Source of the DNA: a virus
Lineage: Duplodnaviria; Heunggongvirae; Uroviricota; Caudoviricetes
Reading direction: 5' to 3' (one strand)
Virus record (IMG/VR): IMGVR_UViG_2728369553_000011
Length of the DNA: 13,332 nucleotides
A program made the position numbers and the translations under genes. How positions within the stretch are numbered: the stretch's first letter is position 1; each line of letters starts with the position of its first letter. Positions 1 to 11,801 of this stretch are shown piece after piece. The notes below the pieces were generated by a model, which was not told the DNA's origin, made no database searches, and saw only the letters and a list, made by a program, of their open reading frames with translations.

Positions 1-1224
1 ATGCTCCAGGAAATTAAACAGGGCAAGCGCAACATCCTGCTGAACGGTATTGGCGAGGTCAGTGGCGCCCTGGTTCATGATGAGATAGATGGCGCTGTTT
101 CCAAACACCGTCATCCACATGAGCGTAAAGCCGGCGGGAACAAACAACACGCCAGTCACGAACTCACGAATTGTCCTGCCGCGGGAAACGCGTGCAATGA
201 ACATACCTACAAACGGCGACCATGAAAGCCACCATCCCCAGTATAATAATGTCCAGCCCCCCAGCCAGTTGCTCGACTTGGGTTCATACGCGTAAAGGTT
301 GAACGTTTTACTCACCAGTTCCGACAGATAACCACCCGTATTTTCCACAAATGACTTCAGCAGAAGCACAGTGGGACCCAGGCACAAGACCAGCGCCAGG
401 AGCAACACCGCCAGGCCCAGATTAAGCTCAGACAGGATGCGTATTCCCTTGTCCAGGCCGGACACCACCGAAATCGTCGCTAACCCCGTGATGACCACGA
501 TCAAAATGACCTGTACCGTTTCATTGATGGGCACGCCGAAAAGATGGTTCAAACCGGCATTCACCTGCAATACACCGTAACCCAGCGATGTTGCAACGCC
601 AAAGACAGTGCCTATCACGGCGAAGATATCAACCGCGTGGCCTATAGGCCCGTAAATGCGATCGCCGATAATGGGATAGAGCGCAGAACGCAGCGTTAAA
701 GGCAGACCGTGACGGTAACTGAAAAAGGCCAGAATCAGCGCCACGATGGCATAAATTGCCCATGCGTGCAGACCCCAGTGGAAGAACGTCAGGCGCATGG
801 CTTCCTTCGCTGCCGCAACGGTCTCTGGAGTGCCGACAGGTGGCGAAAGATAATGCATCACAGGTTCGGCAACGCCAAAGAACATCAGGCCGATCCCCAT
901 CCCTGCCGAAAAAAGCATCGCGAACCAGGAGTGGTAGCTGAAATCAGGCTGCGCATGGTCTGGGCCCAGCTTTATATCACCGTAACGTGAGAGTCCAAGG
1001 AACGTGACGCTCAGTAAAATCAGGGCCACAGCAAGTATGTAGAACCAGCTGGCATTCGTGAAGATTTGTTGCTGAAGTAGTTTAAAATTTTTGTCGGCGA
1101 CATCCGGGAATACGGCGGCAAAGGCGACAAGAAGGAAAATTAGCAAAGCAGATGTAAAGAATACCGCTTTGTTAATCTGGCTTGTAGACTTCTTTGGGGT
1201 TGTATCATTTTCACTCATAATCAT
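1..1224 (-). CDS. BCCT-family (betaine/carnitine/choline) transporter, 5' portion only (N-terminal 408 aa); the gene continues past the left window edge
   Basis: Manual reverse-complement translation gives an unbroken frame from ATG at 1224 (MIMSENDTTPKKS...; alternative ATG at 1218) to position 1, which is why it is absent from the ORF track. Multiple hydrophobic helices and the BCCT signature WTLLYWGWWLSWSPFVGMFIARVSRGRTIREF (compare BetT [32 protein letters not shown]). Confidence 0.85.
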   Translation of the reverse strand, partial: MIMSENDTTPKKSTSQINKAVFFTSALLIFLLVAFAAVFPDVADKNFKLLQQQIFTNASWFYILAVALILLSVTFLGLSRYGDIKLGPDHAQPDFSYHSWFAMLFSAGMGIGLMFFGVAEPVMHYLSPPVGTPETVAAAKEAMRLTFFHWGLHAWAIYAIVALILAFFSYRHGLPLTLRSALYPIIGDRIYGPIGHAVDIFAVIGTVFGVATSLGYGVLQVNAGLNHLFGVPINETVQVILIVVITGLATISVVSGLDKGIRILSELNLGLAVLLLALVLCLGPTVLLLKSFVENTGGYLSELVSKTFNLYAYEPKSSNWLGGWTLLYWGWWLSWSPFVGMFIARVSRGRTIREFVTGVLFVPAGFTLMWMTVFGNSAIYLIMNQGATDLANTVQQDVALALFNFLEH

Positions 1225-1558
1225 TTATTCCATTAATTAAATCCGCACTGGATAGAAGGTACTACCTCTCACAGAGTAGCAAAGTTCAACTGGCTATGCG
1301 GGGTTAATCGGAATGCATGGTGGAATGAGTGCCGATACAAATCATCCTATATTCTAAGGAGTTTTAAGTTACTCAGCCTGCCAATTACTGGGGCATTTAA
1401 TTTGTATGATCTGTATCAAAGCTGGGATATAAGTTAAGTGAAGTATATTAGGCACGAATTACCAGCGTCTGCTCTTGGCACAAAGCGGACAACCACGCTA
1501 GCTCTACCCTGTGCCACAAAATGTCAATTTGCATCTGAACTAATGCACTTTAATCTCG

Positions 1559-1981
1559 TCACTTCAATAAATACCGAACATCCCCCTGATAAAACGACAA
1601 TATGCGCTGCATAACTTCGCTCTTCCGGCACTCGCGACAGATTATGTTTAGGCGACTGTCGTAGCGACGTATTTCTCCGTCAGGTAATGACCAGATAAGG
1701 TCCGGATCAACCACAACCGGTTTCTTCAGCTTTGCCCTAGATAGTTTTTTGCGGGCATTTTGCCAGTCCTTACGAGCCTGTTCAGACGGGAATAACCCGT
1801 AACCAGAGTTGTATACATCGCCACTGGCAACCAGCTCTCTGGCGAGAACGCTCATCAGATATCTTGTCGCACCTGTCTTGGCTTCCAGTTGCCGTAACGT
1901 CTCGCGCCCACTCCGGCGTACTAGTTCAACAACCTGCCCTTTAATTTTTTCCCGCTCTTCTTGTGTAAATACTTTTGCCAT
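1559..1981 (-). CDS. Hypothetical phage protein, 140 aa, basic, function unknown
   Basis: The track ORF 1559..1996 begins at a TTG. An internal ATG at 1981 (MAKVFTQEEREKIKGQ...) has a GGAGG Shine-Dalgarno 5 nt upstream and sits 15 nt after the TGA of the upstream ORF, suggesting co-transcription. No family recognised. Confidence 0.55.
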   Translation of the reverse strand: MAKVFTQEEREKIKGQVVELVRRSGRETLRQLEAKTGATRYLMSVLARELVASGDVYNSGYGLFPSEQARKDWQNARKKLSRAKLKKPVVVDPDLIWSLPDGEIRRYDSRLNIICRECRKSEVMQRILSFYQGDVRYLLK

Positions 1982-1996
1982 AAGCGCCTCCGGCAA

Positions 1997-2758
1997 TCAC
2001 TTTTCCGATACAACACGGCGGGAAGAATCAGTAATCTGTCGAACAATATCCCGGTGCTTGTTCAGCTCCCGCAGCGCGGCGCAGACTCGCTCCCACTTCT
2101 GGACATGATTTTTCGCCCGACGCAGTTCACGGTTTGCCATATGCAGCGATGGTAAAATCAGGTTATCCGCTTGCGTTTCAGTAAACGATGGCAACGACTG
2201 CACAATGTCCGCCACAGTTTCTGTTTTAATATCTTCCTGTGTTGCAGCTTCCTGTACTGGTAACGCAACACCGGCTAGCTGAGGAAAGGCTTTACCATCT
2301 GTTTCCGCTACCGATGCAGCTTTCGGCTCTGCTGGTAAATTACCGCCCGGCATGCAGTAACGAAATTTACCGTTCTGATTAACGCGAATCAGACGAGCTT
2401 TGCTGATTGCCATTGCCAGCGTTGAAGCCACTTTGCGGGATGTGGTACCGAACAACGTAGCCAGTTCATCCGCAGTTAGTGGACCACGTTGTTCAATCGT
2501 CGCAGTTAAATCGCTCTCTGAAATTTTCGCGACTGTTGCCGTGGTAGTTTCTTCCGGCAGTTCTGCCGGCGCTGGCTGTTCCTGCTGAACGTTGTTATCA
2601 GCCACACGCCAGGTGTACGCGCTTTTATCAACGAAACCAGCCTTTTTCAGTTCCCATAGTTCGTTCAGCACTTCTTCACGGCTGATATCAAGTCGCGCAG
2701 CAAGTTCTATGGATGTGGCTTTTCCCATTGCTTTCAGTGCGTCAAAAACAGTCTCCAT
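1997..2758 (-). CDS. Hypothetical phage protein with two winged-helix-like segments (253 aa from ATG 2758; 270 aa if the ATG at 2809 is used); sits at the position of ydaW in K-12 Rac
   Basis: Long - strand ORF. Two segments of similar character (…[29 protein letters not shown]… and …[31 protein letters not shown]…). ATG 2758 has GGGAGA 9 nt upstream and lies after the ydaV-like stop; ATG 2809 would overlap the ydaV-like 3' end by 29 nt. Confidence 0.6.
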
Positions 2759-2780
2759 TAAATTTTTCTCCCGGTAAAAA

Positions 2781-3549
2781 TTACTTCGCAATTCCTGGCT
2801 GGACGACATTCGGACGCCAGCTCTCCCAGTTAAAATTCACCCATCGCCCGCCGTTCATGGTCATGCGATCCATAATCCTCTCGCCGAGCAATGTTTTCAT
2901 GGCCTCATAATTCAGGTTTGTCAGCATCCCCACGCTGCGCATCGACGCTGTCCGGCGATCAACAATCTGGTGCAGCACCACCTGCTCGTTTTTTGTCTCG
3001 CGCTGAATGCCAATTTCATCAAGAACCAGCAGATCCACTTGGCACAGTTCCCGCAAAAATTTTTCGCCTGATTGCCCGTCGTCATAGCTGGCGTGTAGGG
3101 CACTCATGACATCAGCCACGGTAACCACAATCACTGTCTGGCCATCTTTCAGCAGGCGATTCCCGATAGCCGCCGCCAGATGGTTTTTTCCGGTACCAGG
3201 TTTTCCGCTGAACGCAAAATTTGTACACCCGGTCATCAGTTCATCAGCGATGGATTTCGCCTGACTCAACGCGTATCGCTGCCCTTCGTTCTGCACCTGG
3301 TAANNNNNNNNNNNNNNNNNNNNNNNNNNNNNNNNNNNCGAAAACGAGCATTTGCGGTGCAATGGCTGGATGCCAGAGCGATTCAGAATTTTTTCCACCC
3401 GCAACTGACGATTCTGACGGTTGATCTCCTCACAACGTTTCTGGCCTTCGGAAAGTTGCCACTCGCGCCACTCCGCTACCGTTTTGAATGGGGCGGTTAC
3501 ATGTGGCGGGGCCAGTCTGCGGATACGTTCAAGAATGCCNNNNNNNNNN
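2781..3549 (-). CDS. ydaV: DnaC/IstB-like AAA+ helicase loader (phage P-like replication protein), interrupted by N-masked gaps; true start falls in or next to the 10-N run
   Basis: Walker [18 protein letters not shown] and Walker B LLVLDEIG. Frame stays open in the same phase on both sides of the 35-N run. Length from the 10-N run to the stop is about 252-256 aa, close to the recalled 248-aa YdaV. Stop TAA at 2781-2783. Confidence 0.75.
3304..3338. other. Run of 35 N (masked or unsequenced bases) inside the DnaC-like gene
   Basis: Literal N characters. The frame is open and in phase on both sides. Confidence 0.99.
3540..3549. other. Run of 10 N at the ydaU-like stop / ydaV-like start junction
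   Basis: Literal N characters directly next to the TAA of the ydaU-like gene (3550-3552). Confidence 0.99.
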
Positions 3550-4338
3550 TTACCCCCTGAAGCCTGGCGGGATCGCACTATCCGGTAACGAGACGGTGTT
3601 AACCTGTCGGAGTAACGTCTCAGGTCGAACACCTTTTGGCGCGAACAAGCCCTGGTATTCATTGGCGATGCTGTGTCGAATCACCTGCTCAGGTGAAAAA
3701 CCCTGCTGGCGGAATTTTTCCAGCTCCCGTATCGCCCCGTTAGCGCCCTGCTCCGTTCGAATCGGTTTTCGCAATGCCTGCCTGAACTGAACCCACTCAT
3801 GCCAGAGTGTTTCCGGCAACCAGTCAGGCAGCTCGATAGCCTCCGGTTCGAATTTTTTAGACGCTCGTTTTTGGCGAGGGGGATTTAGGGGGAGATAAGT
3901 ATTTATATCTTCCTCTTTCTCTTCCTCTGGTAACGCTTTTTGATCCGTTTTTGTAACGCTGGCAGCGTTACCTTTTCGTTTCAGTTCTCGTATTTTTGTT
4001 ACTCTCTCGTTTGTAACCGCCCGTTTTTTAGAGCTTTTCCCGTTATGGCGCTCAAAGTTAGGAAGCGACAACACACCATTAGTTTCGACCAGCCATCCAA
4101 CCTGAATTAACGCATCAGCAAAACCAGCCATAAAAGTGATGCGATCTATTGCACTTTTTGTAACGCCGCGAGCGTTACACTCTGCGTTACCGTCTATCAT
4201 TTGTTGATCCGCCCATGCCCAGAAGCGAATGACTTTCCCTAATGCGGCATCTGGATCAATATTCAGAATCTCAGCAAGCCTGAATATTTCCGGCTTATCC
4301 GGCGTAATAACTTCGAGCTTTATCCAGTTTGAAGCCAT
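3550..4338 (-). CDS. ydaU: YdaU-like replication initiation / replisome organiser protein (lambda O analogue by position), 262 aa
   Basis: ATG at 4338 with AAGGTGA Shine-Dalgarno 6 nt upstream; stop TAA at 3550-3552. Acidic/basic linker (EEEKEEDINTYLPLNPPRQKRASKK). Sits between the cII-like ydaT and the DnaC-like loader. Contains palindromic repeats in its coding sequence. Confidence 0.7.
   Translation of the reverse strand: MASNWIKLEVITPDKPEIFRLAEILNIDPDAALGKVIRFWAWADQQMIDGNAECNARGVTKSAIDRITFMAGFADALIQVGWLVETNGVLSLPNFERHNGKSSKKRAVTNERVTKIRELKRKGNAASVTKTDQKALPEEEKEEDINTYLPLNPPRQKRASKKFEPEAIELPDWLPETLWHEWVQFRQALRKPIRTEQGANGAIRELEKFRQQGFSPEQVIRHSIANEYQGLFAPKGVRPETLLRQVNTVSLPDSAIPPGFRG
3953..3971. 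repeat. 19-bp palindrome GTAACGCT-GGC-AGCGTTAC, copy 1, inside the ydaU-like coding sequence
   Basis: Perfect 8-bp inverted arms read directly. Flanked by a GGTAACGCT half-site (3929-3937) and CGTTTTTGTAAC-like direct repeats up to about 4030. Confidence 0.75.
4160..4178. repeat. 19-bp palindrome GTAACGCC-GCG-AGCGTTAC, copy 2 (one arm mismatch), inside the ydaU-like coding sequence; extra GCGTTAC half-site at 4184-4190
   Basis: Read directly from sequence. Confidence 0.7.
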
Positions 4339-4351
4339 TTGTTTTCACCTT

Positions 4352-4370
4352 GTAACGCTCGCAGCGTTAC
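4352..4370. repeat. 19-bp palindrome GTAACGCT-CGC-AGCGTTAC, copy 3, non-coding, immediately upstream of the ydaU-like Shine-Dalgarno and ATG
   Basis: Read directly from sequence. On the - strand it reads GTAACGCTGCGAGCGTTAC followed directly by AAGGTGAAAACAAATG. Confidence 0.75.
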
Positions 4371-4380
4371 ATTTAACTGA

Positions 4381-4402
4381 TACCGAACAAAACAGTTCGG
4401 TA
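4381..4402 (-). promoter_or_regulatory. Hairpin (TACCGAAC / GTTCGGTA, 6-nt loop) in the ydaT to ydaU-like spacer; possible attenuator or processing site
   Basis: Perfect 8-bp stem seen in sequence. Only a modest T content follows on the - strand. Confidence 0.3.
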
Positions 4403-4415
4403 CGATTAATTTCAA

Positions 4416-4838
4416 TCAATGCACTACGACAGAATCGCTAGGAGAACCGCCGCCGCTGAAATGTGCTTTACGGTAAACGGCCTGGACTGCATCATCATGC
4501 GCATCAATTGCCGTACTCAGTGCATCCTGTGCCGCCAGTAATGCACGGCGTTCCAGGGTATCGAAGATGCAGAGTCGGTGACGCAGCTCGCGAGGAAGAA
4601 TTGCCAGAACCGCAGGGATCAGTTTCTGAATTTTTTCCCTTTGCGCATTCGTTTCACCTTTCAACCAACGATGATAGATATTCTGCTGATTGTTCCAGTC
4701 CTTGCCTGGTACCAGGGGCAATTCGCCGCCCCCCTGGCGCAGATATTCTTCAGTAATTGCGTTAGCGACCCACGCCTGCCCTTTTTCGGCTGCCAGGGCT
4801 AACAACACTGATTCGATGTGCTCATGCTTGATTTTCAT
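4416..4838 (-). CDS. ydaT: YdaT, CII-like regulator/toxic protein of the Rac immunity region, 140 aa
   Basis: 140-aa ORF MKIKHEHIESVLLALAAEKGQAWV... Its ATG (4838-4836) overlaps the ydaS TGA (ATGA-type coupling). Length and sequence match recalled K-12 YdaT. Confidence 0.8.
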   Translation of the reverse strand: MKIKHEHIESVLLALAAEKGQAWVANAITEEYLRQGGGELPLVPGKDWNNQQNIYHRWLKGETNAQREKIQKLIPAVLAILPRELRHRLCIFDTLERRALLAAQDALSTAIDAHDDAVQAVYRKAHFSGGGSPSDSVVVH

Positions 4839-5089
4839 GAATCAACTCCCATCAGCTTTTTCGTAGTAGTTTTATTTCTGCCAATAGTTAAAATTGCATC
4901 GGCAGAAAATAATCCGTTTGATGCATGAGCGATTTTTTCAGCGTAATTTGTTTCGCCGGTATATTCTGTGCGAGGCAATTTTCCGTTATCCATCCATTTG
5001 TAGATTGCTCTTTGGCTGACACCACAAACGTCGGCCACAACAGAAACGCGAACAGTTTTGATTACATCTTCAAGTGTTTTCTGGTTCAT
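4835..5089 (-). CDS. ydaS: YdaS, Cro-like XRE-family HTH protein (84 aa from ATG 5089; the ORF is open up to ATG 5161)
   Basis: HTH segment VADVCGVSQRAIYKWMDNGKLP. ATG 5089 is preceded by GAGGA 4 nt upstream. Divergent from racR. Start choice is uncertain. Confidence 0.75.
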   Translation of the reverse strand: MNQKTLEDVIKTVRVSVVADVCGVSQRAIYKWMDNGKLPRTEYTGETNYAEKIAHASNGLFSADAILTIGRNKTTTKKLMGVDS

Positions 5090-5113
5090 ATCATCCTCAC
5101 AATGTGAACTTTG

Positions 5114-5144
5114 AGTACATGCCATAACAGAACTGACAGTACAT
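5114..5144. promoter_or_regulatory. Two direct copies of AGTACAT (5114-5120 and 5138-5144), 24 bp apart, in the racR/ydaS divergent region; candidate repressor operator half-sites
   Basis: Seen in sequence. The second copy overlaps the putative racR -35 element. Confidence 0.3.
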
Positions 5145-5161
5145 TCAAGAGCGAATATCAT
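5133..5161 (+). promoter_or_regulatory. Candidate sigma70 promoter for racR: -35 CTGACA (5133-5138), 17-bp spacer, -10 TATCAT (5156-5161); predicts a leaderless or near-leaderless racR mRNA, as for lambda cI from PRM
   Basis: Hexamers read directly from the sequence. racR ATG at 5169 with no SD. Confidence 0.35.
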
Positions 5162-5168
5162 TGAACTT

Positions 5169-5588
5169 ATGGTTCATGAAGATAAAGCGCGTAAAGAGTT
5201 CGCCAGTAGGCTTGCGCTAGCCTGTGAAAACGCTGGTTATGAACAACATGGAAGGCAGGCAGAAATTGCCCGTCGAATGAAATTAACACCAAAAGCGGTT
5301 AGCAAATGGTTTAATGGTGAAACAATTCCTCGCCGAGAGAAATTAAGGGAATTAGCAACACTCATTGGAACAACACCAACCTATCTTTTGGGAGAGGATA
5401 CAGAAGAAAGTGGACAGATACGTTTCTATCAGGAGTTAAATCCAAGACAAAAAATCATCATTGACCTTCTGGACGAGCTCCCTGACAGTGAGACAGATGA
5501 ACTTTTAAAAACTCTTGAGGAGAAAAAACAGAAGTACAATGCAATTTACGAAGAGTTAGCACGAAAGAAAAAACAAAAAGCCTCTTAA
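5169..5588 (+). CDS. racR: RacR, CI-like prophage repressor (139 aa as read here)
   Basis: ORF MVHEDKARKEFASRLALACENAGYEQHGRQAEIARRMKLTPKAVSKWFNGE with an HTH segment. Divergent to ydaS/ydaT. No Shine-Dalgarno upstream, and a -10-like TATCAT ends 7 nt before the ATG. Confidence 0.8.
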   Translation: MVHEDKARKEFASRLALACENAGYEQHGRQAEIARRMKLTPKAVSKWFNGETIPRREKLRELATLIGTTPTYLLGEDTEESGQIRFYQELNPRQKIIIDLLDELPDSETDELLKTLEEKKQKYNAIYEELARKKKQKAS

Positions 5589-5663
5589 ATCAGCATAAAT
5601 CCGGTAGCGTCCCCCTCCGGGTTTGTGCTTCACTTTATCCCGTCTCATTTTTTTATACATAAA

Positions 5664-5704
5664 ATGTACTTAAAGTACTTTACAATGATGAACACAAAGT
5701 ACAT
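5664..5704. promoter_or_regulatory. Cluster of GTAC-core repeats downstream of racR: ATGTACT (5664-5670), perfect palindrome AAGTACTT (5673-5680), AGTACAT (5698-5704); candidate second operator and ydaG promoter region
   Basis: Seen in sequence. Same 7-mer family as at 5114-5144. AT-rich context with TTTACA and TTATAT hexamers nearby. Confidence 0.3.
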
Positions 5705-5875
5705 TATATACCTACCAACCCACCCCGCCCCACAGAACGCAGGGCAATACTTCGAGTTACCAGGCAGTGGTAAGGGGTTAAGTAGCCAGCCCGAGGCGTA
5801 TGAACATGACGGCGGGATTCAAATTTTGCAGTGCAGCAGTTAGTTCCGCCACCCGGCGTTAAGGGGAGAGATAAG

Positions 5876-6010
5876 ATGGTGCATTACGAAGTAGTTCAGT
5901 ATTTGATGGATTGTTGCGGTATCACTTACAACCAGGCTGTGCAGGCTTTACGCAGCAACGACTGGGATCTCTGGCAGGCAGAAGTCGCTATACGTAGCAA
6001 CAAGATGTGA
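5876..6010 (+). CDS. ydaG: YdaG, small Rac prophage protein (44 aa)
   Basis: ATG 5876 preceded by a strong SD AAGGGGAGAG. Translation MVHYEVVQYLMDCCGITYNQAVQALRSNDWDLWQAEVAIRSNKM. Below the ORF-track length cutoff. Confidence 0.65.
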   Translation: MVHYEVVQYLMDCCGITYNQAVQALRSNDWDLWQAEVAIRSNKM

Positions 6011-6020
6011 GATTCGCAAA

Positions 6021-6176
6021 ATGCAAAAAATCGACCTCGGCAACAACGAATCCCTGGTGTGCGGCGTGTTCCCCAACCAGGATGGAACGTTCACTGCCAT
6101 GACGTATACCAAAAGCAAAACATTTAAAACCGAAACTGGTGCGCGCCGATGGTTGGAGAAGCACACAGTAAGCTAA
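6021..6176 (+). CDS. ydaF: YdaF, small Rac prophage protein (51 aa)
   Basis: ATG 6021, 10 nt after the ydaG stop. Translation MQKIDLGNNESLVCGVFPNQDGTFTAMTYTKSKTFKTETGARRWLEKHTVS. Its 3' end overlaps the convergent sieB 3' end by 4 nt. Confidence 0.65.
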   Translation: MQKIDLGNNESLVCGVFPNQDGTFTAMTYTKSKTFKTETGARRWLEKHTVS

Positions 6177-6661
6177 CGATTAAAACGTCTACTCCTGCTG
6201 TTCCAGAATAACTTCATAAAATGGGAGTATTTTTCGGTGACGAGATAATAAGAACAGTTTGCGCTATCACTCTGATGTTGAATGATGCCCTTCCGTTCTA
6301 ATTTTTTCATAACCGGGTTACGGCAAGGAGAAGTGATAATAAGATTTCCTGTTTTAAGGAAATCTTTAAATACAGCGATTTCTTTCTCAGATAAACGAAG
6401 CAATACTCGTTGCTCTGGTAGTAATGAATAATGCTTTTGAATATGTGCTCGCAATCTTGAGAAGGAAATGGCGACCACGAAAGAAAAGGCAAAAACGATA
6501 ATCTGAAAGAGCCAAGGTATTTCAGTATAAGCATTGAATGCGACAGTAAACTCTTTCGGTATCAGCCAGAGAGTGAGACCAAAAATGATAATCGTATACA
6601 TAAGTCTTTCGAGTGGCTCGTTAGCAAAAAGTTTCAACAATGGAGTAAATACATCCAACAT
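6173..6661 (-). CDS. sieB: SieB, superinfection exclusion / abortive-infection membrane protein (162 aa)
   Basis: Track ORF 6173..6784; the internal ATG at 6661 (MLDVFTPLLKLFANEPLERLMYTIIIFGLTLWLIPKEF...) gives the recalled 162-aa length. Hydrophobic N-terminal half. Confidence 0.8.
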   Translation of the reverse strand: MLDVFTPLLKLFANEPLERLMYTIIIFGLTLWLIPKEFTVAFNAYTEIPWLFQIIVFAFSFVVAISFSRLRAHIQKHYSLLPEQRVLLRLSEKEIAVFKDFLKTGNLIITSPCRNPVMKKLERKGIIQHQSDSANCSYYLVTEKYSHFMKLFWNSRSRRFNR

Positions 6662-6879
6662 ATCAATAACTCTCAACTGTAAGGGTATTGAAATGTTAAC
6701 ACAAGCTCTCGCTGTAGGGGTATAGCCGAGACCACCGAAGCCCGGAGGTGGTGAAATAAAACCGGGCACAACACGAAGGCGCATTTCCGATATCCATAAA
6801 GAGTCGGTCTTGTCTGTTAAATTTAAATGGTGGGAGTGCGCCTCCGGTTGTAAATAACGACATTGCTGTGTGTAGTCCT

Positions 6880-6930
6880 GGCGGCATCAGTTTTTTTCTT
6901 GAAGTTCGGCTGATGTCCGCCCTTTTTAAA
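6880..6930 (+). terminator. Terminator-like hairpin: arms GGCGGCATCAG / CTGATGTCCGCC (one bulged T), 19-nt loop, followed by CTTTTTAAA; lies in the sieB-kilR divergent region
   Basis: Seen in sequence. The T-run follows the stem only on the + strand. The loop is long, so prediction is weak. Confidence 0.3.
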
Positions 6931-7102
6931 GTGAATTTTGTGATGCGGTGAATGCGGCTAAGCGCACGTGGCACAGTTAAAAGTCATGTTAGTCCTTATT
7001 GGTTTGGGTGGGAAAGCCGACTGTAATTGTTAACTGGTTGCAGTCACCTGGAGGCACCAGGCACCGCATCAACAAAGTTCATTTGTAAAAATGGAGATAA
7101 TT

Positions 7103-7324
7103 ATGATTGCACATCACTTCGGAACTGATGAAATACCACGTCAGTGTGTGACTCCTGGCGATTATGTTCTTCATGAAGGCCGGACATATATTGCCTCGGC
7201 AAACAATATTAAAAAGCGAAAACTATATATTCGTAACCTGACCACAAAAACATGCATTACTGACCGCATGATTAAAGTCTTCCTCGGTCGTGATGGTTTA
7301 CCTGTAAAGGCGGAGTCATGGTGA
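7103..7324 (+). CDS. kilR: KilR, Rac prophage cell-division inhibitor (73 aa)
   Basis: ATG 7103 with GGAGA 6 nt upstream. Translation [73 protein letters not shown]. Stop TGA overlaps the ydaE ATG by 1 nt. Confidence 0.85.
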
Positions 7325-7494
7325 TGACTAAGAAAATAAAATGTGCTTACCACCTTTGCAAAAAAGACGTTGAAGAAAGCAAAGCTATTGAAAAAATGCT
7401 TCACTTCATGCACGGGATTTTATCAAAAGACGAACCGAGAAAATATTGCAGTGAAGCTTGTGCCGAAAAAGACCAGATGGCACATGAACTTTAA
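7324..7494 (+). CDS. ydaE: YdaE, small Cys-rich (CxxC…CxxxC) Rac prophage protein (56 aa)
   Basis: ATG 7324 in a TGATG overlap with kilR. Translation [56 protein letters not shown]. Below the ORF-track cutoff. Confidence 0.7.
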   Translation: MTKKIKCAYHLCKKDVEESKAIEKMLHFMHGILSKDEPRKYCSEACAEKDQMAHEL

Positions 7495-7568
7495 TTAATT
7501 GACTATTCGAAACTGAATTTATGCCAGAAATGGCAGGTATTCGCTCAACCTTAATTAAGGAGAAAAAC

Positions 7569-7844
7569 ATGATTACCAATTATGAAGCCACTGTTGTAAC
7601 TACCGATGACATTGTTCACGAGGTGAATCTGGAAGGAAAGCGCATTGGCTACGTAATTAAAACAGAAAATAAAGAAACCCCATTCACTGTGGTTGATATC
7701 GATGGTCCATCAGGCAACGTAAAAACACTTGATGAAGGTGTCAAAAAAATGTGCCTGGTGCATATCGGAAAGAATCTGCCCGCAGAAAAAAAAGCCGAAT
7801 TTCTGGCAACTCTAATTGCAATGAAATTAAAAGGTGAAATCTGA
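7569..7844 (+). CDS. racC: RacC, Rac prophage protein (91 aa)
   Basis: ATG 7569 preceded by AAGGAG. Translation MITNYEATVVTTDDIVHEVNLEGKRIGYVIKTENKETPF… The track ORF 7521..7844 is an N-terminally extended version. Confidence 0.85.
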   Translation: MITNYEATVVTTDDIVHEVNLEGKRIGYVIKTENKETPFTVVDIDGPSGNVKTLDEGVKKMCLVHIGKNLPAEKKAEFLATLIAMKLKGEI

Positions 7845-7849
7845 AAGAA

Positions 7850-7874
7850 ATAGCCTGCGTATGGCGCAGGCTAT
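7850..7874. promoter_or_regulatory. Perfect 10-bp stem / 5-nt loop hairpin (ATAGCCTGCG tatgg CGCAGGCTAT) 6 nt after the racC stop, in the racC-recE spacer
   Basis: Seen in sequence. No U-tract follows on the + strand; a T-rich tract (TTCTTTCAGATTTC) follows on the - strand. Confidence 0.4.
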
Positions 7875-7945
7875 GAACAGTGTGTATCCGGCAAGATCAT
7901 TCACTGAACAAAACGAATTTTAATCTGAGTTGAGGTTAAAAAACA

Positions 7946-10546
7946 ATGAGCACAAAACCACTCTTCCTGTTACGGAAAGCGAAAAAATCATCCAGTGAAC
8001 CTGACGTCGTCCTGTGGGCAAGCAACGATTTTGAATCGACCTGTGCCACTCTGGACTACCTGATCGTTAAGTCAGGTAAAAAACTGAGCAGCTATTTTAA
8101 AGCTGTTGCCACGAATTTTCCTGTCGTTAATGACCTGCCCGCTGAAGGTGAGATCGATTTTACCTGGAGTGAACGCTATCAACTCAGCAAAGACTCCATG
8201 ACATGGGAACTAAAACCGGGAGCAGCACCAGACAACGCTCACTATCAAGGCAATACCAACGTCAACGGCGAAGACATGACTGAGATTGAGGAGAATATGC
8301 TACTCCCAATTTCTGGCCAGGAACTGCCCATTCGTTGGCTTGCTCAACACGGCAGCGAAAAACCGGTAACGCACGTTTCACGCGACGGACTCCAGGCATT
8401 ACACATTGCTCGGGCTGAAGAACTACCGGCTGTTACTGCCCTGGCTGTTTCCCACAAAACCAGCCTGCTCGACCCGCTGGAAATTCGCGAACTCCACAAA
8501 CTGGTTCGTGACACTGACAAAGTTTTCCCTAATCCTGGTAATTCAAACCTGGGACTGATAACTGCTTTTTTCGAAGCATACCTGAACGCTGACTACACCG
8601 ATCGAGGACTGCTGACAAAAGAGTGGATGAAGGGTAATCGTGTTTCACACATCACTCGCACGGCTTCCGGTGCTAATGCTGGCGGCGGAAACCTCACCGA
8701 TCGCGGCGAAGGTTTCGTACACGATCTGACGTCACTGGCGCGCGACGTAGCCACTGGCGTACTGGCCCGTTCAATGGATCTGGACATCTATAACCTTCAT
8801 CCGGCACACGCTAAACGCATTGAGGAAATTATCGCTGAAAATAAACCGCCCTTTTCTGTTTTCCGCGACAAATTCATCACCATGCCTGGCGGGCTGGATT
8901 ATTCCCGCGCCATCGTGGTTGCGTCCGTAAAAGAAGCACCAATTGGGATCGAGGTCATCCCCGCGCACGTCACTGAATATCTGAACAAAGTACTGACTGA
9001 AACCGATCATGCCAACCCTGATCCGGAAATCGTGGATATTGCCTGCGGTCGCTCCTCTGCCCCGATGCCGCAGCGAGTAACAGAAGAAGGAAAACAGGAT
9101 GATGAAGAAAAACCGCAACCATCTGGAACAACGGCAGTTGAACAGGGAGAGGCTGAAACAATGGAACCGGACGCAACTGAACATCATCAGGACACGCAGC
9201 CGCTGGATGCTCAGTCACAGGTAAATTCTGTTGATGCGAAATATCAGGAACTGCGGGCAGAACTCCATGAAGCCCGGAAAAACATTCCATCAAAAAATCC
9301 TGTCGATGACGATAAATTGCTTGCTGCATCACGTGGTGAATTTGTTGACGGAATTAGCGACCCGAACGATCCGAAATGGGTAAAGGGGATCCAGACTCGC
9401 GATTGTGTGTACCAGAACCAGCCAGAAACGGAAAAAACCAGCCCAGATATGAATCAACCTGAGCCAGTAGTGCAACAGGAACCGGAAATAGCCTGCAATG
9501 CCTGCGGCCAGACTGGCGGGGATAACTGCCCTGACTGTGGTGCGGTGATGGGCGACGCAACATACCAGGAAACATTCGATGAAGAGAGTCAGGTTGAAGC
9601 TAAGGAAAATGATCCGGAGGAAATGGAAGGCGCTGAACATCCGCACAATGAGAATGCTGGCAGCGATCCGCATCGCGATTGCAGTGATGAAACTGGCGAA
9701 GTCGCAGATCCCGTAATCGTAGAAGACATAGAGCCAGGTATTTATTACGGAATTTCGAATGAGAATTACCACGCGGGTCCCGGTATCAGTAAGTCTCAGC
9801 TCGATGACATTGCTGATACTCCGGCACTATATTTGTGGCGTAAAAATGCCCCCGTGGACACCACAAAGACAAAAACGCTCGATTTAGGAACTGCTTTCCA
9901 CTGCCGGGTACTTGAACCGGAAGAATTCAGTAACCGCTTTATCGTAGCACCTGAATTTAACCGCCGTACAAACGCCGGAAAAGAAGAAGAGAAAGCGTTT
10001 CTGATGGAATGCGCAAGCACAGGAAAAACGGTTATCACTGCGGAAGAAGGCCGGAAAATTGAACTCATGTATCAAAGCGTTATGGCTTTGCCGCTGGGGC
10101 AATGGCTTGTTGAAAGCGCCGGACACGCTGAATCATCAATTTACTGGGAAGATCCTGAAACAGGAATTTTGTGTCGGTGCCGTCCGGACAAAATTATCCC
10201 TGAATTTCACTGGATCATGGACGTGAAAACTACGGCGGATATTCAACGATTCAAAACCGCTTATTACGACTACCGCTATCACGTTCAGGATGCATTCTAC
10301 AGTGACGGTTATGAAGCACAGTTTGGAGTGCAGCCAACTTTCGTTTTTCTGGTTGCCAGCACAACTATTGAATGCGGACGTTATCCGGTTGAAATTTTCA
10401 TGATGGGCGAAGAAGCAAAACTGGCAGGTCAACAGGAATATCACCGCAATCTGCGAACCCTGTCTGACTGCCTGAATACCGATGAATGGCCAGCTATTAA
10501 GACATTATCACTGCCCCGCTGGGCTAAGGAATATGCAAATGACTAA
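7946..10546 (+). CDS. recE: RecE, exonuclease VIII (866 aa), 5'-3' dsDNA exonuclease of the RecET recombination pathway
   Basis: 866-aa [32 protein letters not shown]…, with an acidic central region and a C-terminal nuclease domain. GAGG upstream of the ATG. Followed by recT with an 8-nt overlap. Confidence 0.95.
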
Positions 10547-11348
10547 GCAACCACCAATCGCAAAAGCCGATCTGCAAAAAACTCAGGGAAACCGTGCACC
10601 AGCAGCAGTTAAAAATAGCGACGTGATTAGTTTTATTAACCAGCCATCAATGAAAGAGCAACTGGCAGCAGCTCTTCCACGCCATATGACGGCTGAACGT
10701 ATGATCCGTATCGCCACCACAGAAATTCGTAAAGTTCCGGCGTTAGGAAACTGTGACACTATGAGTTTTGTCAGTGCGATCGTACAGTGTTCACAGCTCG
10801 GACTTGAGCCAGGTAGCGCCCTCGGTCATGCATATTTACTGCCTTTTGGTAATAAAAACGAAAAGAGCGGTAAAAAGAACGTTCAGCTAATCATTGGCTA
10901 TCGCGGCATGATTGATCTGGCTCGCCGTTCTGGTCAAATCGCCAGCCTGTCAGCCCGTGTTGTCCGTGAAGGTGACGAGTTTAGCTTCGAATTTGGCCTT
11001 GATGAAAAGTTAATACACCGCCCGGGAGAAAACGAAGATGCCCCGGTTACCCACGTCTATGCTGTCGCAAGACTGAAAGACGGAGGTACTCAGTTTGAAG
11101 TTATGACGCGCAAACAGATTGAGCTGGTGCGCAGCCTGAGTAAAGCTGGTAATAACGGGCCGTGGGTAACTCACTGGGAAGAAATGGCAAAGAAAACGGC
11201 TATTCGTCGCCTGTTCAAATATCTGCCCGTATCAATTGAGATCCAGCGTGCAGTATCAATGGATGAAAAGGAACCACTGACAATCGATCCTGCAGATTCC
11301 TCTGTATTAACCGGGGAATACAGTGTAATCGATAATTCAGAGGAATAA
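10539..11348 (+). CDS. recT: RecT, single-strand annealing protein (269 aa)
   Basis: ATG 10539 ([24 protein letters not shown]…) overlapping the recE stop (10544-10546); the track ORF 10482..11348 is an N-terminally extended frame. 269 aa matches recalled RecT. Confidence 0.95.
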
Positions 11349-11355
11349 TTCAGCC

Positions 11356-11376
11356 TGGCGGTGTAATGCACCGCCA
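11356..11376 (+). terminator. Hairpin (TGGCGGTG taatg CACCGCCA) 8 nt after the recT stop, followed by AACTTGAAATATTTTTT; possible weak terminator or attenuator before ralR
   Basis: Seen in sequence. The T-tract is displaced about 11 nt from the stem. Confidence 0.3.
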
Positions 11377-11404
11377 ACTTGAAATATTTTTTATGAGAAA
11401 AATT

Positions 11405-11599
11405 ATGAGATATGACAATGTTAAACCATGTCCATTTTGTGGTTGTCCATCAGTAACGGTGAAAGCCATTTCAGGATATTACCGAGCGAAGTGTAACGGA
11501 TGCGAATCCCGAACCGGTTATGGTGGAAGTGAAAAAGAAGCACTCGAAAGATGGAATAAACGAACCACTGGAAATAATAATGGAGGTGTTCATGTATAA
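11405..11599 (+). CDS. ralR: RalR (Lar), restriction-alleviation protein / type I toxin DNase, 64 aa, zinc-ribbon-like
   Basis: ATG 11405. Translation MRYDNVKPCPFCGCPSVTVKAISGYYRAKCNGCESRTGYGGSEKEALERWNKRTTGNNNGGVHV, with CPFC…CNGC motifs. The track ORF 11366..11599 is an extended frame. Confidence 0.85.
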   Translation: MRYDNVKPCPFCGCPSVTVKAISGYYRAKCNGCESRTGYGGSEKEALERWNKRTTGNNNGGVHV

Positions 11600-11801
11600 A
11601 ATTACCGCCACTATTGAAAAGGAAGGTGGCACTCCTACTAACTGGACAAGATATTCAAAATCTAAACTAACGAAATCAGAATGCGAAAAAATGCTCTCAG
11701 GTAAAAAAGAAGCAGGCGTTTCCAGAGAGCAGAAAGTAAAATTGATAAATTTTAATTGCGAGAAACTTCAGTCCTCGAGAATTGCATTGTATTCAAATTA
11801 A
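11592..11801 (+). CDS. ydaC: YdaC, small Rac prophage protein (69 aa)
   Basis: ATG 11592 with GGAGG 5 nt upstream; overlaps the ralR 3' end by 8 nt. Translation MYKITATIEKEGGTPTNWTRYSKSKLTKSECEKMLSGKKEAGVSREQKVKLINFNCEKLQSSRIALYSN. Confidence 0.75.
   Translation: MYKITATIEKEGGTPTNWTRYSKSKLTKSECEKMLSGKKEAGVSREQKVKLINFNCEKLQSSRIALYSN

Follow-up and report, generated by a model that had tools for sequence, protein, structure and literature searches.

Phage morons and hotspots, such as the Z/fun and old/tin positions of phage P2 (Rousset et al. 2022, PMC9122126), are fixed slots that hold unrelated genes, often low in GC and often with anti-phage functions. We analysed a slot of the same kind in a window of 13,332 nt, a term by which we mean the whole stretch of Escherichia coli chromosomal DNA found in IMG/VR record IMGVR_UViG_2728369553_000011. 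Here, a gene for a BCCT-family transporter lies in a Rac-type prophage, and its cassette ends at a 24-bp palindromic site at window positions 1467-1490. We consider it probable that this gene is part of an exchangeable cargo cassette in a prophage slot, bounded by such sites and subject to a site-specific exchange that a small tyrosine recombinase would carry out. Hotspots of the P2 type differ from our locus in being defined by conserved flanking genes, and the cargo of the window is metabolic or osmotic rather than defensive; in the portion of their open-access text that was searched (PMC9122126), neither a boundary site nor a recombinase is mentioned. As found here, the fun(Z) slot of P2 is bracketed by the same 24-bp sites as the cargo between lygF and hokD, the genes that flank our slot. 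A repeat flanking foreign DNA at Z/fun, together with a proposal of site-specific recombination, was reportedly described by Nilsson, Karlsson and Haggard-Ljungquist in 2004, in Mol Biol Evol 21:1; that work is said to name no recombinase and to leave the lambdoid lygF-hokD slot, plasmids and arrays outside its coverage. The sites around fun(Z) are probably this repeat, and the site itself may already be known in the P2 context.

Three further systems are comparable to this locus. First, integrons likewise have arrays of one- or two-gene cassettes, imperfectly palindromic junctions, an embedded tyrosine recombinase and hybrid sites with a fixed crossover point, and the 66-nt double-site junction found here can, like theirs, be folded as one long imperfect hairpin. 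They differ in that our recombinase has 200 aa, lacks a core-binding domain and scores 54 bits against an XerA/IntI cut-off of 220, that the genes lie in either orientation without a Pc-type common promoter, and that the replicons are phages, islands and plasmids. An attI with an IntI-type integrase beside it (about 320 aa and bearing the IntI-specific insertion) was not found. Our sites measure 24 bp and conserve the sequence of their arms, GTCCGCT and AGCGGAC, which are not attC cores, the consensus of which is RYYYAAC...GTTRRRY. Second, the pdif modules of Acinetobacter (PMC12907356, PMC10272872) are accessory or resistance modules that, as here, lie between inversely oriented short core sites, are chained and are shared between replicons. 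However, pdif sites are dif-like (11-6-11) and used by the host XerCD, whereas ours are built as 7-10-7, are unrelated in sequence and come with a dedicated small recombinase as the candidate enzyme. Judged against the generally known dif consensus, namely, 28 bp with XerC and XerD arms, they show no resemblance to dif. Third, the PeSLs of T4-type phages (PMC2839356, PMC4122927) are conserved stem-loop motifs that flank variable open reading frames (ORFs) in hyperplastic regions, with a comparable shuffling of modules; they are, however, promoter/terminator composites acting via homologous recombination, and the 24-bp sites have no promoter or terminator features. In the open-access literature the sequences of our sites are printed nowhere, Rac and BCCT are not linked, and no such recombinase-cassette system is described.

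The transporter island and its 24-bp boundary sites

Window positions 1-2810 are 100% identical to ECONIH4 (NZ_CP026399.1) and to 13 further complete genomes. The transporter gene belongs to an island of 6.7 kb and five genes, which in about 6% of complete E. coli genomes occupies the variable slot that Rac-type and other lambdoid prophages have between lygF and hokD, and which consists of two cassettes, namely, one encoding the BCCT transporter and a DUF2254 membrane protein, and one encoding an MFS transporter, a gamma-glutamylcyclotransferase-like (GGCT-like) protein and a LysR regulator. The right-hand part of the former cassette makes up window positions 1-1466. By local BLAST, the whole island spans positions 14752-21466 of locus L002, where sites stand at 14728, 17794 and 21467, the last of these being the site of the window (1467).

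The site was defined as GTCCGCT-N-TG[A/T]GC[G/C]A-NN-AGCGGAC, that is, 7-bp inverted arms around a 10-bp centre. The core within this centre distinguishes two classes of site, F with TGAGCGA and r with TGTGCCA. The window site reads GTCTGCT CTTGGCACAA AGCGGAC on the plus strand and GTCCGCT T TGTGCCA AG AGCAGAC on the minus strand, matches the consensus at 23 of 24 positions, and is of class r, with its invariant half toward the phage backbone. The other two sites of L002 are those on the hokD side (14728, class F, GTCCGCT TTGAGCGAGG AGCGGAC) and between the two cassettes (17794, class r, GTCCGCT TCTGGCACAA AGCAGAC). Three comparisons place the window site exactly where cargo gives way to backbone. 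First, homology with the phage backbone begins at 1464-1467. Second, homology with plasmids bearing the resistance gene qnrS1 (99.8%) extends through 1491. Third, homology with paralogues of the cassette ends at 1327 or 1354.

The same cassette, with its sites, is found in an unrelated type of replicon, since DUF2254-BCCT is present at 99% identity or above on 68 plasmids. Boundaries were read on two of these (IncY and IncFIA, both with qnrS1), where homology of 99.8% runs from site to site and ends at the outer site edges. The left site is a hybrid, in that the plasmid reads GCCCGCT TTT followed by GGCACAAAGCAGAC and the prophage GTCCGCT TCT followed by GGCACAAAGCAGAC, with the crossover visible inside the site. 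Plasmids of this kind from E. coli, Shigella and Klebsiella (L008 and L009, about 4200-11700) bear several cassettes of the lygF-hokD slot, namely, the WP_000161640 gene, a small recombinase and DUF2254-BCCT, which adjoin ISKpn19/qnrS1 and IS26.

The BCCT fragment of the window occurs at 99% identity or more in 407 records and at about 93% in 1574. The former lineage is found solely beside lygF in Rac-type prophages (323 genomes, the number in which the spacer linking the island to lygF is complete) or on plasmids, while MFS-GGCT-LysR occurs in 311 of 5426 genomes, with at least 99% identity in all except two. The gene is, then, neither at a conserved chromosomal locus independent of the prophage, as the first-pass annotation had contemplated, nor a known core gene at the usual Rac boundary. 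For MFS-GGCT-LysR (L001/L002 14968-17749), no donor was found among 185,579 species representatives, the best GGCT relative standing at 62% amino-acid identity (Serratia), and in none of 80 loci were other genes of the island found in synteny.

In BL21 the 93% paralogue is part of the fec/leuX island (L003 10818-13327), between the insertion sequences (IS) IS911 and IS600 and beside fecABCDE, and a 94% BCCT(-DUF2254) plasmid copy (L004) is bounded by IS1; some records of the paralogue made by the Prokaryotic Genome Annotation Pipeline (PGAP) say BetT. Such bounds would be in keeping with arrival of BCCT-DUF2254 as an IS-bounded composite transposon, an explanation that we regard as very improbable, since the lineage of prophages and qnrS1 plasmids has neither an IS nor a remnant of one at either cassette end, where the 24-bp sites stand instead; the annotation holds no transposase within the cassette, and no target duplication flanks the sites.

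To place the site in a broader context, we scanned IMG/VR for the exact pattern, which returned at least 120 stretches, and 80 loci were analysed. In about 58 of the 80, a site stands 95-124 bp past lygF with hokD on the far side, and the DNA between sites falls into at least a dozen unrelated classes of length and sequence. A constant grammar holds in these 80 loci, with F (nTGAGCGAnn) at one end and r (nTGTGCCAnn, on the opposite strand) at the other, and chained cassettes are joined by paired sites 15-18 bp apart. After collapsing, 14 distinct cargo flanks remain at F and 12 at r. In the collapsed profile there is no variation in the backbone flank, the outer arm or eight positions of the centre, the inner arm and the final two bases of the centre vary with the cassette, and past the site there is zero similarity; the switch falls inside the 10-nt centre. 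Sites are present at 17.3 per 100 kb in 22 loci with the recombinase gene described below. Unrelated control loci, 1.41 Mb in all, give 0.07 per 100 kb, and shuffled sequence gives about 0.5 per 100 kb when the threshold is relaxed. We considered a boxA-like CGCTCTT within the site and rejected it, since the bases of the loop differ from cassette to cassette and the motif stands on the strand that is not transcribed. The r-centre core GTGCCAA presumably resembles the sfx core of the R64 shufflon, a likeness on which we do not rely.

Many of the unrelated cassettes hold anti-phage genes, and among the cargo outside the window are AbiH, PD-T7-1, PDC-S33 (a RelA/SpoT-like candidate for defence), DUF7380/DUF4209, DUF4365 and a HAD-plus-NUDIX pair. 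The lygF-hokD slot behaves as an accessory and defence hotspot, of which the transporter island is an atypical, metabolic occupant. Sites in other backbones account for about 22 analysed loci. On a P2-like contig, two cassettes with sites stand just upstream of the sheath (FI) and tube genes, and in phage P2 itself fun(Z) lies between an r site, 60 bp past gene G, and a degenerate F site that precedes the FI promoter. A more degenerate member of the family was seen at L002 9419-9442, between the Q-like antiterminator and the lysis genes and beside a gene with a TolA C-terminal domain; it recurs in L118, L131, L136, L138 and L148, about 5.6 kb past the F site, and its position, which is that of stx in Stx phages, suggests a second slot bounded by sites.

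A candidate recombinase within cassette junctions

Some cassette arrays contain a gene for a small tyrosine recombinase of 200 aa, which consists of the catalytic domain (PF00589) alone and, among structures of the PDB, has weak similarity only, to XerD. This gene is present in 912 of 5426 complete E. coli genomes, and WP_023147793 and WP_001305361 are examples of its product. Relatives of its product are 77-95% identical, nearly all being 194-203 aa long among the matches listed, and come from Providencia, Proteus, Pantoea, Sodalis, Pectobacterium, Idiomarina, Pseudoalteromonas and marine metagenomes.

We read 15 contexts of the gene, from Escherichia, Providencia, Pantoea, Idiomarina and marine metagenomes. 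In all 15, the stop codon is followed by CAGGGCTG-N7-CAGCCCTGTGCCA and then by a variable NN-AGCGGAC, so that the downstream half is the invariant half of an r site fused to a neighbour-specific half. On the other side of the gene, in those contexts that have a full upstream site, a neighbour-specific arm plus NN is followed by TCGCTCAT-AAGrGAC-AACCATA, which is the invariant F half. With half-sites on either side, the recombinase gene therefore lies inside a junction, where it replaces the 15-18 bp linker. A conserved inverted repeat, for example CTCAAATCTCC ... GGAGATTTGAG, covers the ribosome-binding site and start codon of the gene (L005, L009, L214, L225 and L229), and may control translation of the recombinase.

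Arrays and modules were found around this gene in other genera. First, a contig of Pantoea agglomerans has 13 sites in 16.6 kb, between which lie about nine small cassettes with genes for acetyltransferases, an HNH protein, a dehydrogenase and a DUF2625 protein; the recombinase gene is inside one junction. Second, in Providencia islands a module of seven genes lies between an r site and the recombinase's own r half-site, which form direct repeats. Third, in Idiomarina (L227/L228 8001-13400) the gene stands between the core genes gcvTHP and a module of a two-component system, an EptA-type phosphoethanolamine transferase, PAP2 and DAGK, which resembles polymyxin-resistance loci; an F site is about 7 kb away.

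The shape of the sites suggests how exchange would proceed. An invariant backbone half joined to a cassette-specific half (2 nt plus one arm) is the pattern expected if strand exchange takes place inside the centre of a tyrosine-recombinase core site, within an overlap of 7 bp. Such a system would also produce two centre classes of fixed polarity and the linkage of the recombinase gene to half-sites. Direct sites of the same class, such as the r...r pair that surrounds BCCT-DUF2254, would let a cassette leave and reinsert in circular form, and F...r pairs would let two replicons trade the DNA between the sites with nothing lost. In engineered cassette exchange, heterospecific lox or FRT sites work in this way. 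The likely enzyme would be the 200-aa, catalytic-domain-only recombinase, acting in trans.

Several observations weigh against this account. First, the small recombinase gene is absent from the window and its 43-kb neighbourhood, and most cassettes have none; therefore, action in trans must be assumed. Second, marine ars/cop islands bear the recombinase with only its own r half-site. Third, BCCT-DUF2254 has r sites on both sides, as direct repeats and with no F, bounds that make the F...r rule not universal. Fourth, an unoccupied slot, in which the hokD-side and lygF-side backbones would be joined via one or two sites, was not found in two IMG/VR pattern scans; neither an excised circle nor an empty site was seen. 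Fifth, compensatory changes are absent from the arms, and the single window site forms a hairpin of ordinary stability (z = -0.8 and +0.5); what is conserved is therefore the sequence and not the fold. A folded-DNA mechanism is not supported, although the hairpin of the 66-nt double junction does stand out (z about -3). Finally, the transporter's substrate is assigned through family membership.

These points leave room for another explanation, namely, that the palindromes have a different role, for example in binding proteins or in insulating transcripts around accessory genes, that cassettes are swapped between co-resident phages and plasmids by short-homology recombination (RecET, lambda Red or RecA), and that the recombinase is mere cargo. 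The prophage of the window encodes its own RecE and RecT, the breakpoints fall within the sole sequence common to otherwise unrelated DNAs, the short palindromes could serve as homology patches for RecET or Red, in keeping with the missing empty site, and in T4-type phages the shuffling of modules at PeSLs needs no dedicated recombinase (PMC2839356, PMC4122927). We nevertheless consider this explanation unlikely. It leaves unaccounted for the identical arms on cargo that is unrelated and comes from the phages, islands and plasmids of several genera, the two persistent centre classes with their fixed polarity, and the bracketing of the recombinase gene by half-sites in every context read, with unit boundaries inside site centres. 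Moreover, the sites lack a T-run and are not terminator-like, and 15 identical bp on each side are few even for Red or RecET.

The Rac-type prophage, its gene content and its truncation

The features in the left part of the window are as follows.

1..1218, minus strand: BCCT transporter gene, first 406 codons of 665 aa (BetT-like), extending past base 1 (Pfam BCCT, NCBIfam, PGAP).
1219..1354, minus strand: conserved region upstream of BCCT, presumably promoter or leader (94-97% identity with the IS-bounded paralogues).
1355..1466, no strand assigned: cassette-specific end segment, restricted to the prophage/qnrS1-plasmid lineage of the cassette.
1467..1490, no strand assigned: 24-bp palindromic boundary site, r class (homology switch point and consensus match).
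1491..1558, minus strand: phage backbone, 3' flank of lygF (93-97% identity in prophages with other cargo, L005 and L006, and in phage Tritos).
1559..1981, minus strand: lygF (DUF977, 'Ren-like exclusion protein'), last gene of the replication module (PF06163, phrog_142).
1997..2758, minus strand: full-length ydaW (DUF1627 plus an N-terminal winged helix-turn-helix; PF07789, phrog_630).
2781..3527, minus strand: ydaV, IstB/DnaC-like ATPase (PF01695, E = 2.6e-18; PGAP 'ydaV').

The first-pass annotation had recognised the BCCT gene at the left end of the window, which the Pfam match bears out (PF02028, E = 4.6e-162, 540 bits against a cut-off of 27; TIGR00842, 543 bits against 407.55), but had taken it to be divergent from the neighbouring ORFs. 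Six-frame translation places it on the minus strand, from ATG 1218 (PGAP; a second ATG is at 1224) until it leaves the window at base 1, that is, co-oriented with the phage ORFs and downstream of them. The protein scores 752 bits, against a cut-off of 695, with the BetT subfamily profile NF007399 ('choline BCCT transporter BetT'), aligned over 8-665 of 665 aa, and it has the BetT-type architecture, in which about 670 aa include a long C-terminal extension in the cytoplasm. Alignment with K-12 BetT along the whole protein, C-terminal domain included, gives 42% identity. The protein stays below the cut-off of the glycine-betaine equivalog profile (593 vs 650). Its substrate would be choline or betaine, taken up for osmoprotection.

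The spacer of about 340 bp between BCCT and the ORFs stands as first described, as does the DnaC/IstB-like gene (ydaV) that follows them. Its part next to the transporter gene, 1219-1354, is shared with the fec-island paralogue of BL21 (to 1327) and with the IS1-bounded plasmid copy (to 1354) at 94-97% identity. A terminator and promoter scan of 1150-1650 found no consensus sigma-70 promoter or terminator, and no repeat was found in the spacer; Rfam gave zero matches at E <= 1 across window positions 1-3000, and the spacer holds neither a known RNA family nor a GC-rich stem with a T-run. The GC comparison that had been proposed gave 53% for the BCCT part, 40% for the spacer and 46% for the phage part.

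The two minus-strand ORFs beyond the spacer (1559-1996 and 1997-2809) do exist as listed, but they are recognisable, contrary to the original description, as lygF (DUF977) and ydaW (DUF1627). The evidence for lygF is PF06163 (E = 1.8e-28), phrog_142 (E = 5.9e-45) and the name LygF in at least 15 phage records; a GGAGG ribosome-binding site precedes the ATG at 1981, and the mechanical ORF reaches 1996 via a TTG. For ydaW it is PF07789 (E = 4e-97), phrog_630 (E = 7e-128) and the name ydaW in the complete phage Rac-SA53; here the mechanical ORF reaches 2809, and K-12 ydaW is alignable solely to window positions 2309-2758. Further into the window, at 4835-5588, the immunity region is unlike that of K-12 Rac, with a 139-aa HTH_3 repressor-like gene and an 84-aa helix-turn-helix gene instead of racR/ydaS. 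Downstream of lygF, CP53 has yet another replication module, and the early region is a mosaic.

In ECONIH4 the order of genes is uspF; IS1; MFS transporter, GGCT-like and LysR; DUF2254 and BCCT; lygF, ydaW and ydaV, and then on to sieB, kilR, racC, recE, recT, ralR, xisR and intR; ttcA. The prophage is of the Rac type, with integration at ttcA and the intR-xisR-ralR-recT-recE-racC-kilR-sieB arm. K-12 Rac shares the integration site and the synteny of intR, xisR, ralR, recT, recE, racC, kilR, sieB and ydaV, with about 94% identity over ydaV-ydaW. It differs by a deletion from ydaW to rzpR, which joins the first 450 bp of ydaW (codon ~150) to rzpR and removed the 3' part of ydaW, lygF, the cargo slot, hokD, the nin/Q region and the holin/endolysin genes; K-12 Rac has no slot because of this deletion. 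In the window, by contrast, ydaW, lygF and the slot are kept and everything past the slot is lost.

The loss in the window lineage is marked by an IS1. Positions 1-1996 had been read as the junction of prophage and host, which does not hold, as in ECONIH4 the island runs on for 5.2 kb to the left of the window start, up to a 768-bp IS1 (L001 14075-14842) that abuts a 13-bp ttcC/attR remnant near uspF. This IS1 joins the remnant to the island, 91 bp inside its left edge. The 9-mers flanking the IS1, CGCAAAATC and TGCTGTGGG, are unequal, and there is therefore no IS1 target duplication. The exact uspF-IS1-MFS junction is found in 13 genomes, and in other strains the same IS1, at the same position on the uspF side, is joined to ydaV, recE or abgT. 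These joints are the pattern expected of nested IS1 adjacent deletions entering Rac from its right end; in the window lineage, an IS1 at the attR remnant later deleted hokD through the tail genes, leaving the BCCT cassette 5.2 kb from the new prophage end. An intact attL/attR pair with late genes, as in a complete excisable prophage, is not present, and the prophage of this lineage cannot excise via the usual attL x attR reaction.

CP53 shows what the locus looks like within an almost complete Rac-type prophage, where phage backbone stands on both sides of the island, namely, lygF on one side and, on the other, hokD, DUF1367/DUF1364/DUF1133 (nin/Q region), the lysis genes, trkG, ynaK and the terminase genes. 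This arrangement bears on two explanations considered in the first-pass annotation. The first of these, in which the transporter is an ordinary host locus fused to a truncated prophage by deletion, is right about the truncation, since the prophage is truly truncated, with IS1 at its new end; this deletion lies at the attR remnant, beyond the island. As for a host locus, the proposal is refuted by the CP53 backbone on both sides of the island, and we give it next to no likelihood; in K-12 and other Rac-free arrangements ttcA/ttcC is directly beside uspF with no BCCT, and the remaining E. coli copies are the 93% fec-island paralogue and the plasmid copies. The second is that BCCT replaced trkG as the transporter cargo of the prophage. 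K-12 Rac indeed has trkG and no BCCT, which makes the transporter a cargo foreign to K-12, as had been proposed, and the window has BCCT and no trkG. However, in CP53 trkG is in its usual place after the lysis genes, in the same prophage as the BCCT island, so that two separate slots are both filled. With this coexistence the replacement is refuted and its probability practically nil; trkG is missing in the window lineage because the IS1 deletion took the whole late region.

Possible cassette exchange among phage hotspots, islands and plasmids

The arrangement itself is ordinary and already annotated, being accessory cargo in a known variable region of Rac with a later truncation by IS1; what is added here is the 24-bp site at 1467-1490 and its connections. 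It is tempting to speculate that the F and r sites and the small recombinase form an uncharacterised, integron-like system of cassette capture and exchange in Gammaproteobacteria, which would stock the accessory and defence hotspots of lambdoid and P2-like phages, genomic islands and resistance plasmids. Having two heterospecific classes of site, it would be capable of a natural form of recombinase-mediated cassette exchange. We put this broader proposal forward only tentatively, on comparative grounds. The BetT-like cassette, 99.8% identical between Rac prophages and qnrS1 plasmids, would be a recent passenger of that system.

If this were true, a small recombinase acting on a short site would account for the ever-changing defence and fitness genes of phage hotspots, and for the travel of the same cassette between prophages and antibiotic-resistance plasmids. 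The site would also provide a sequence signature by which cargo could be delimited automatically in the annotation of phages and islands, and a compact recombinase with two orthogonal 24-bp sites might serve as a tool for cassette exchange.

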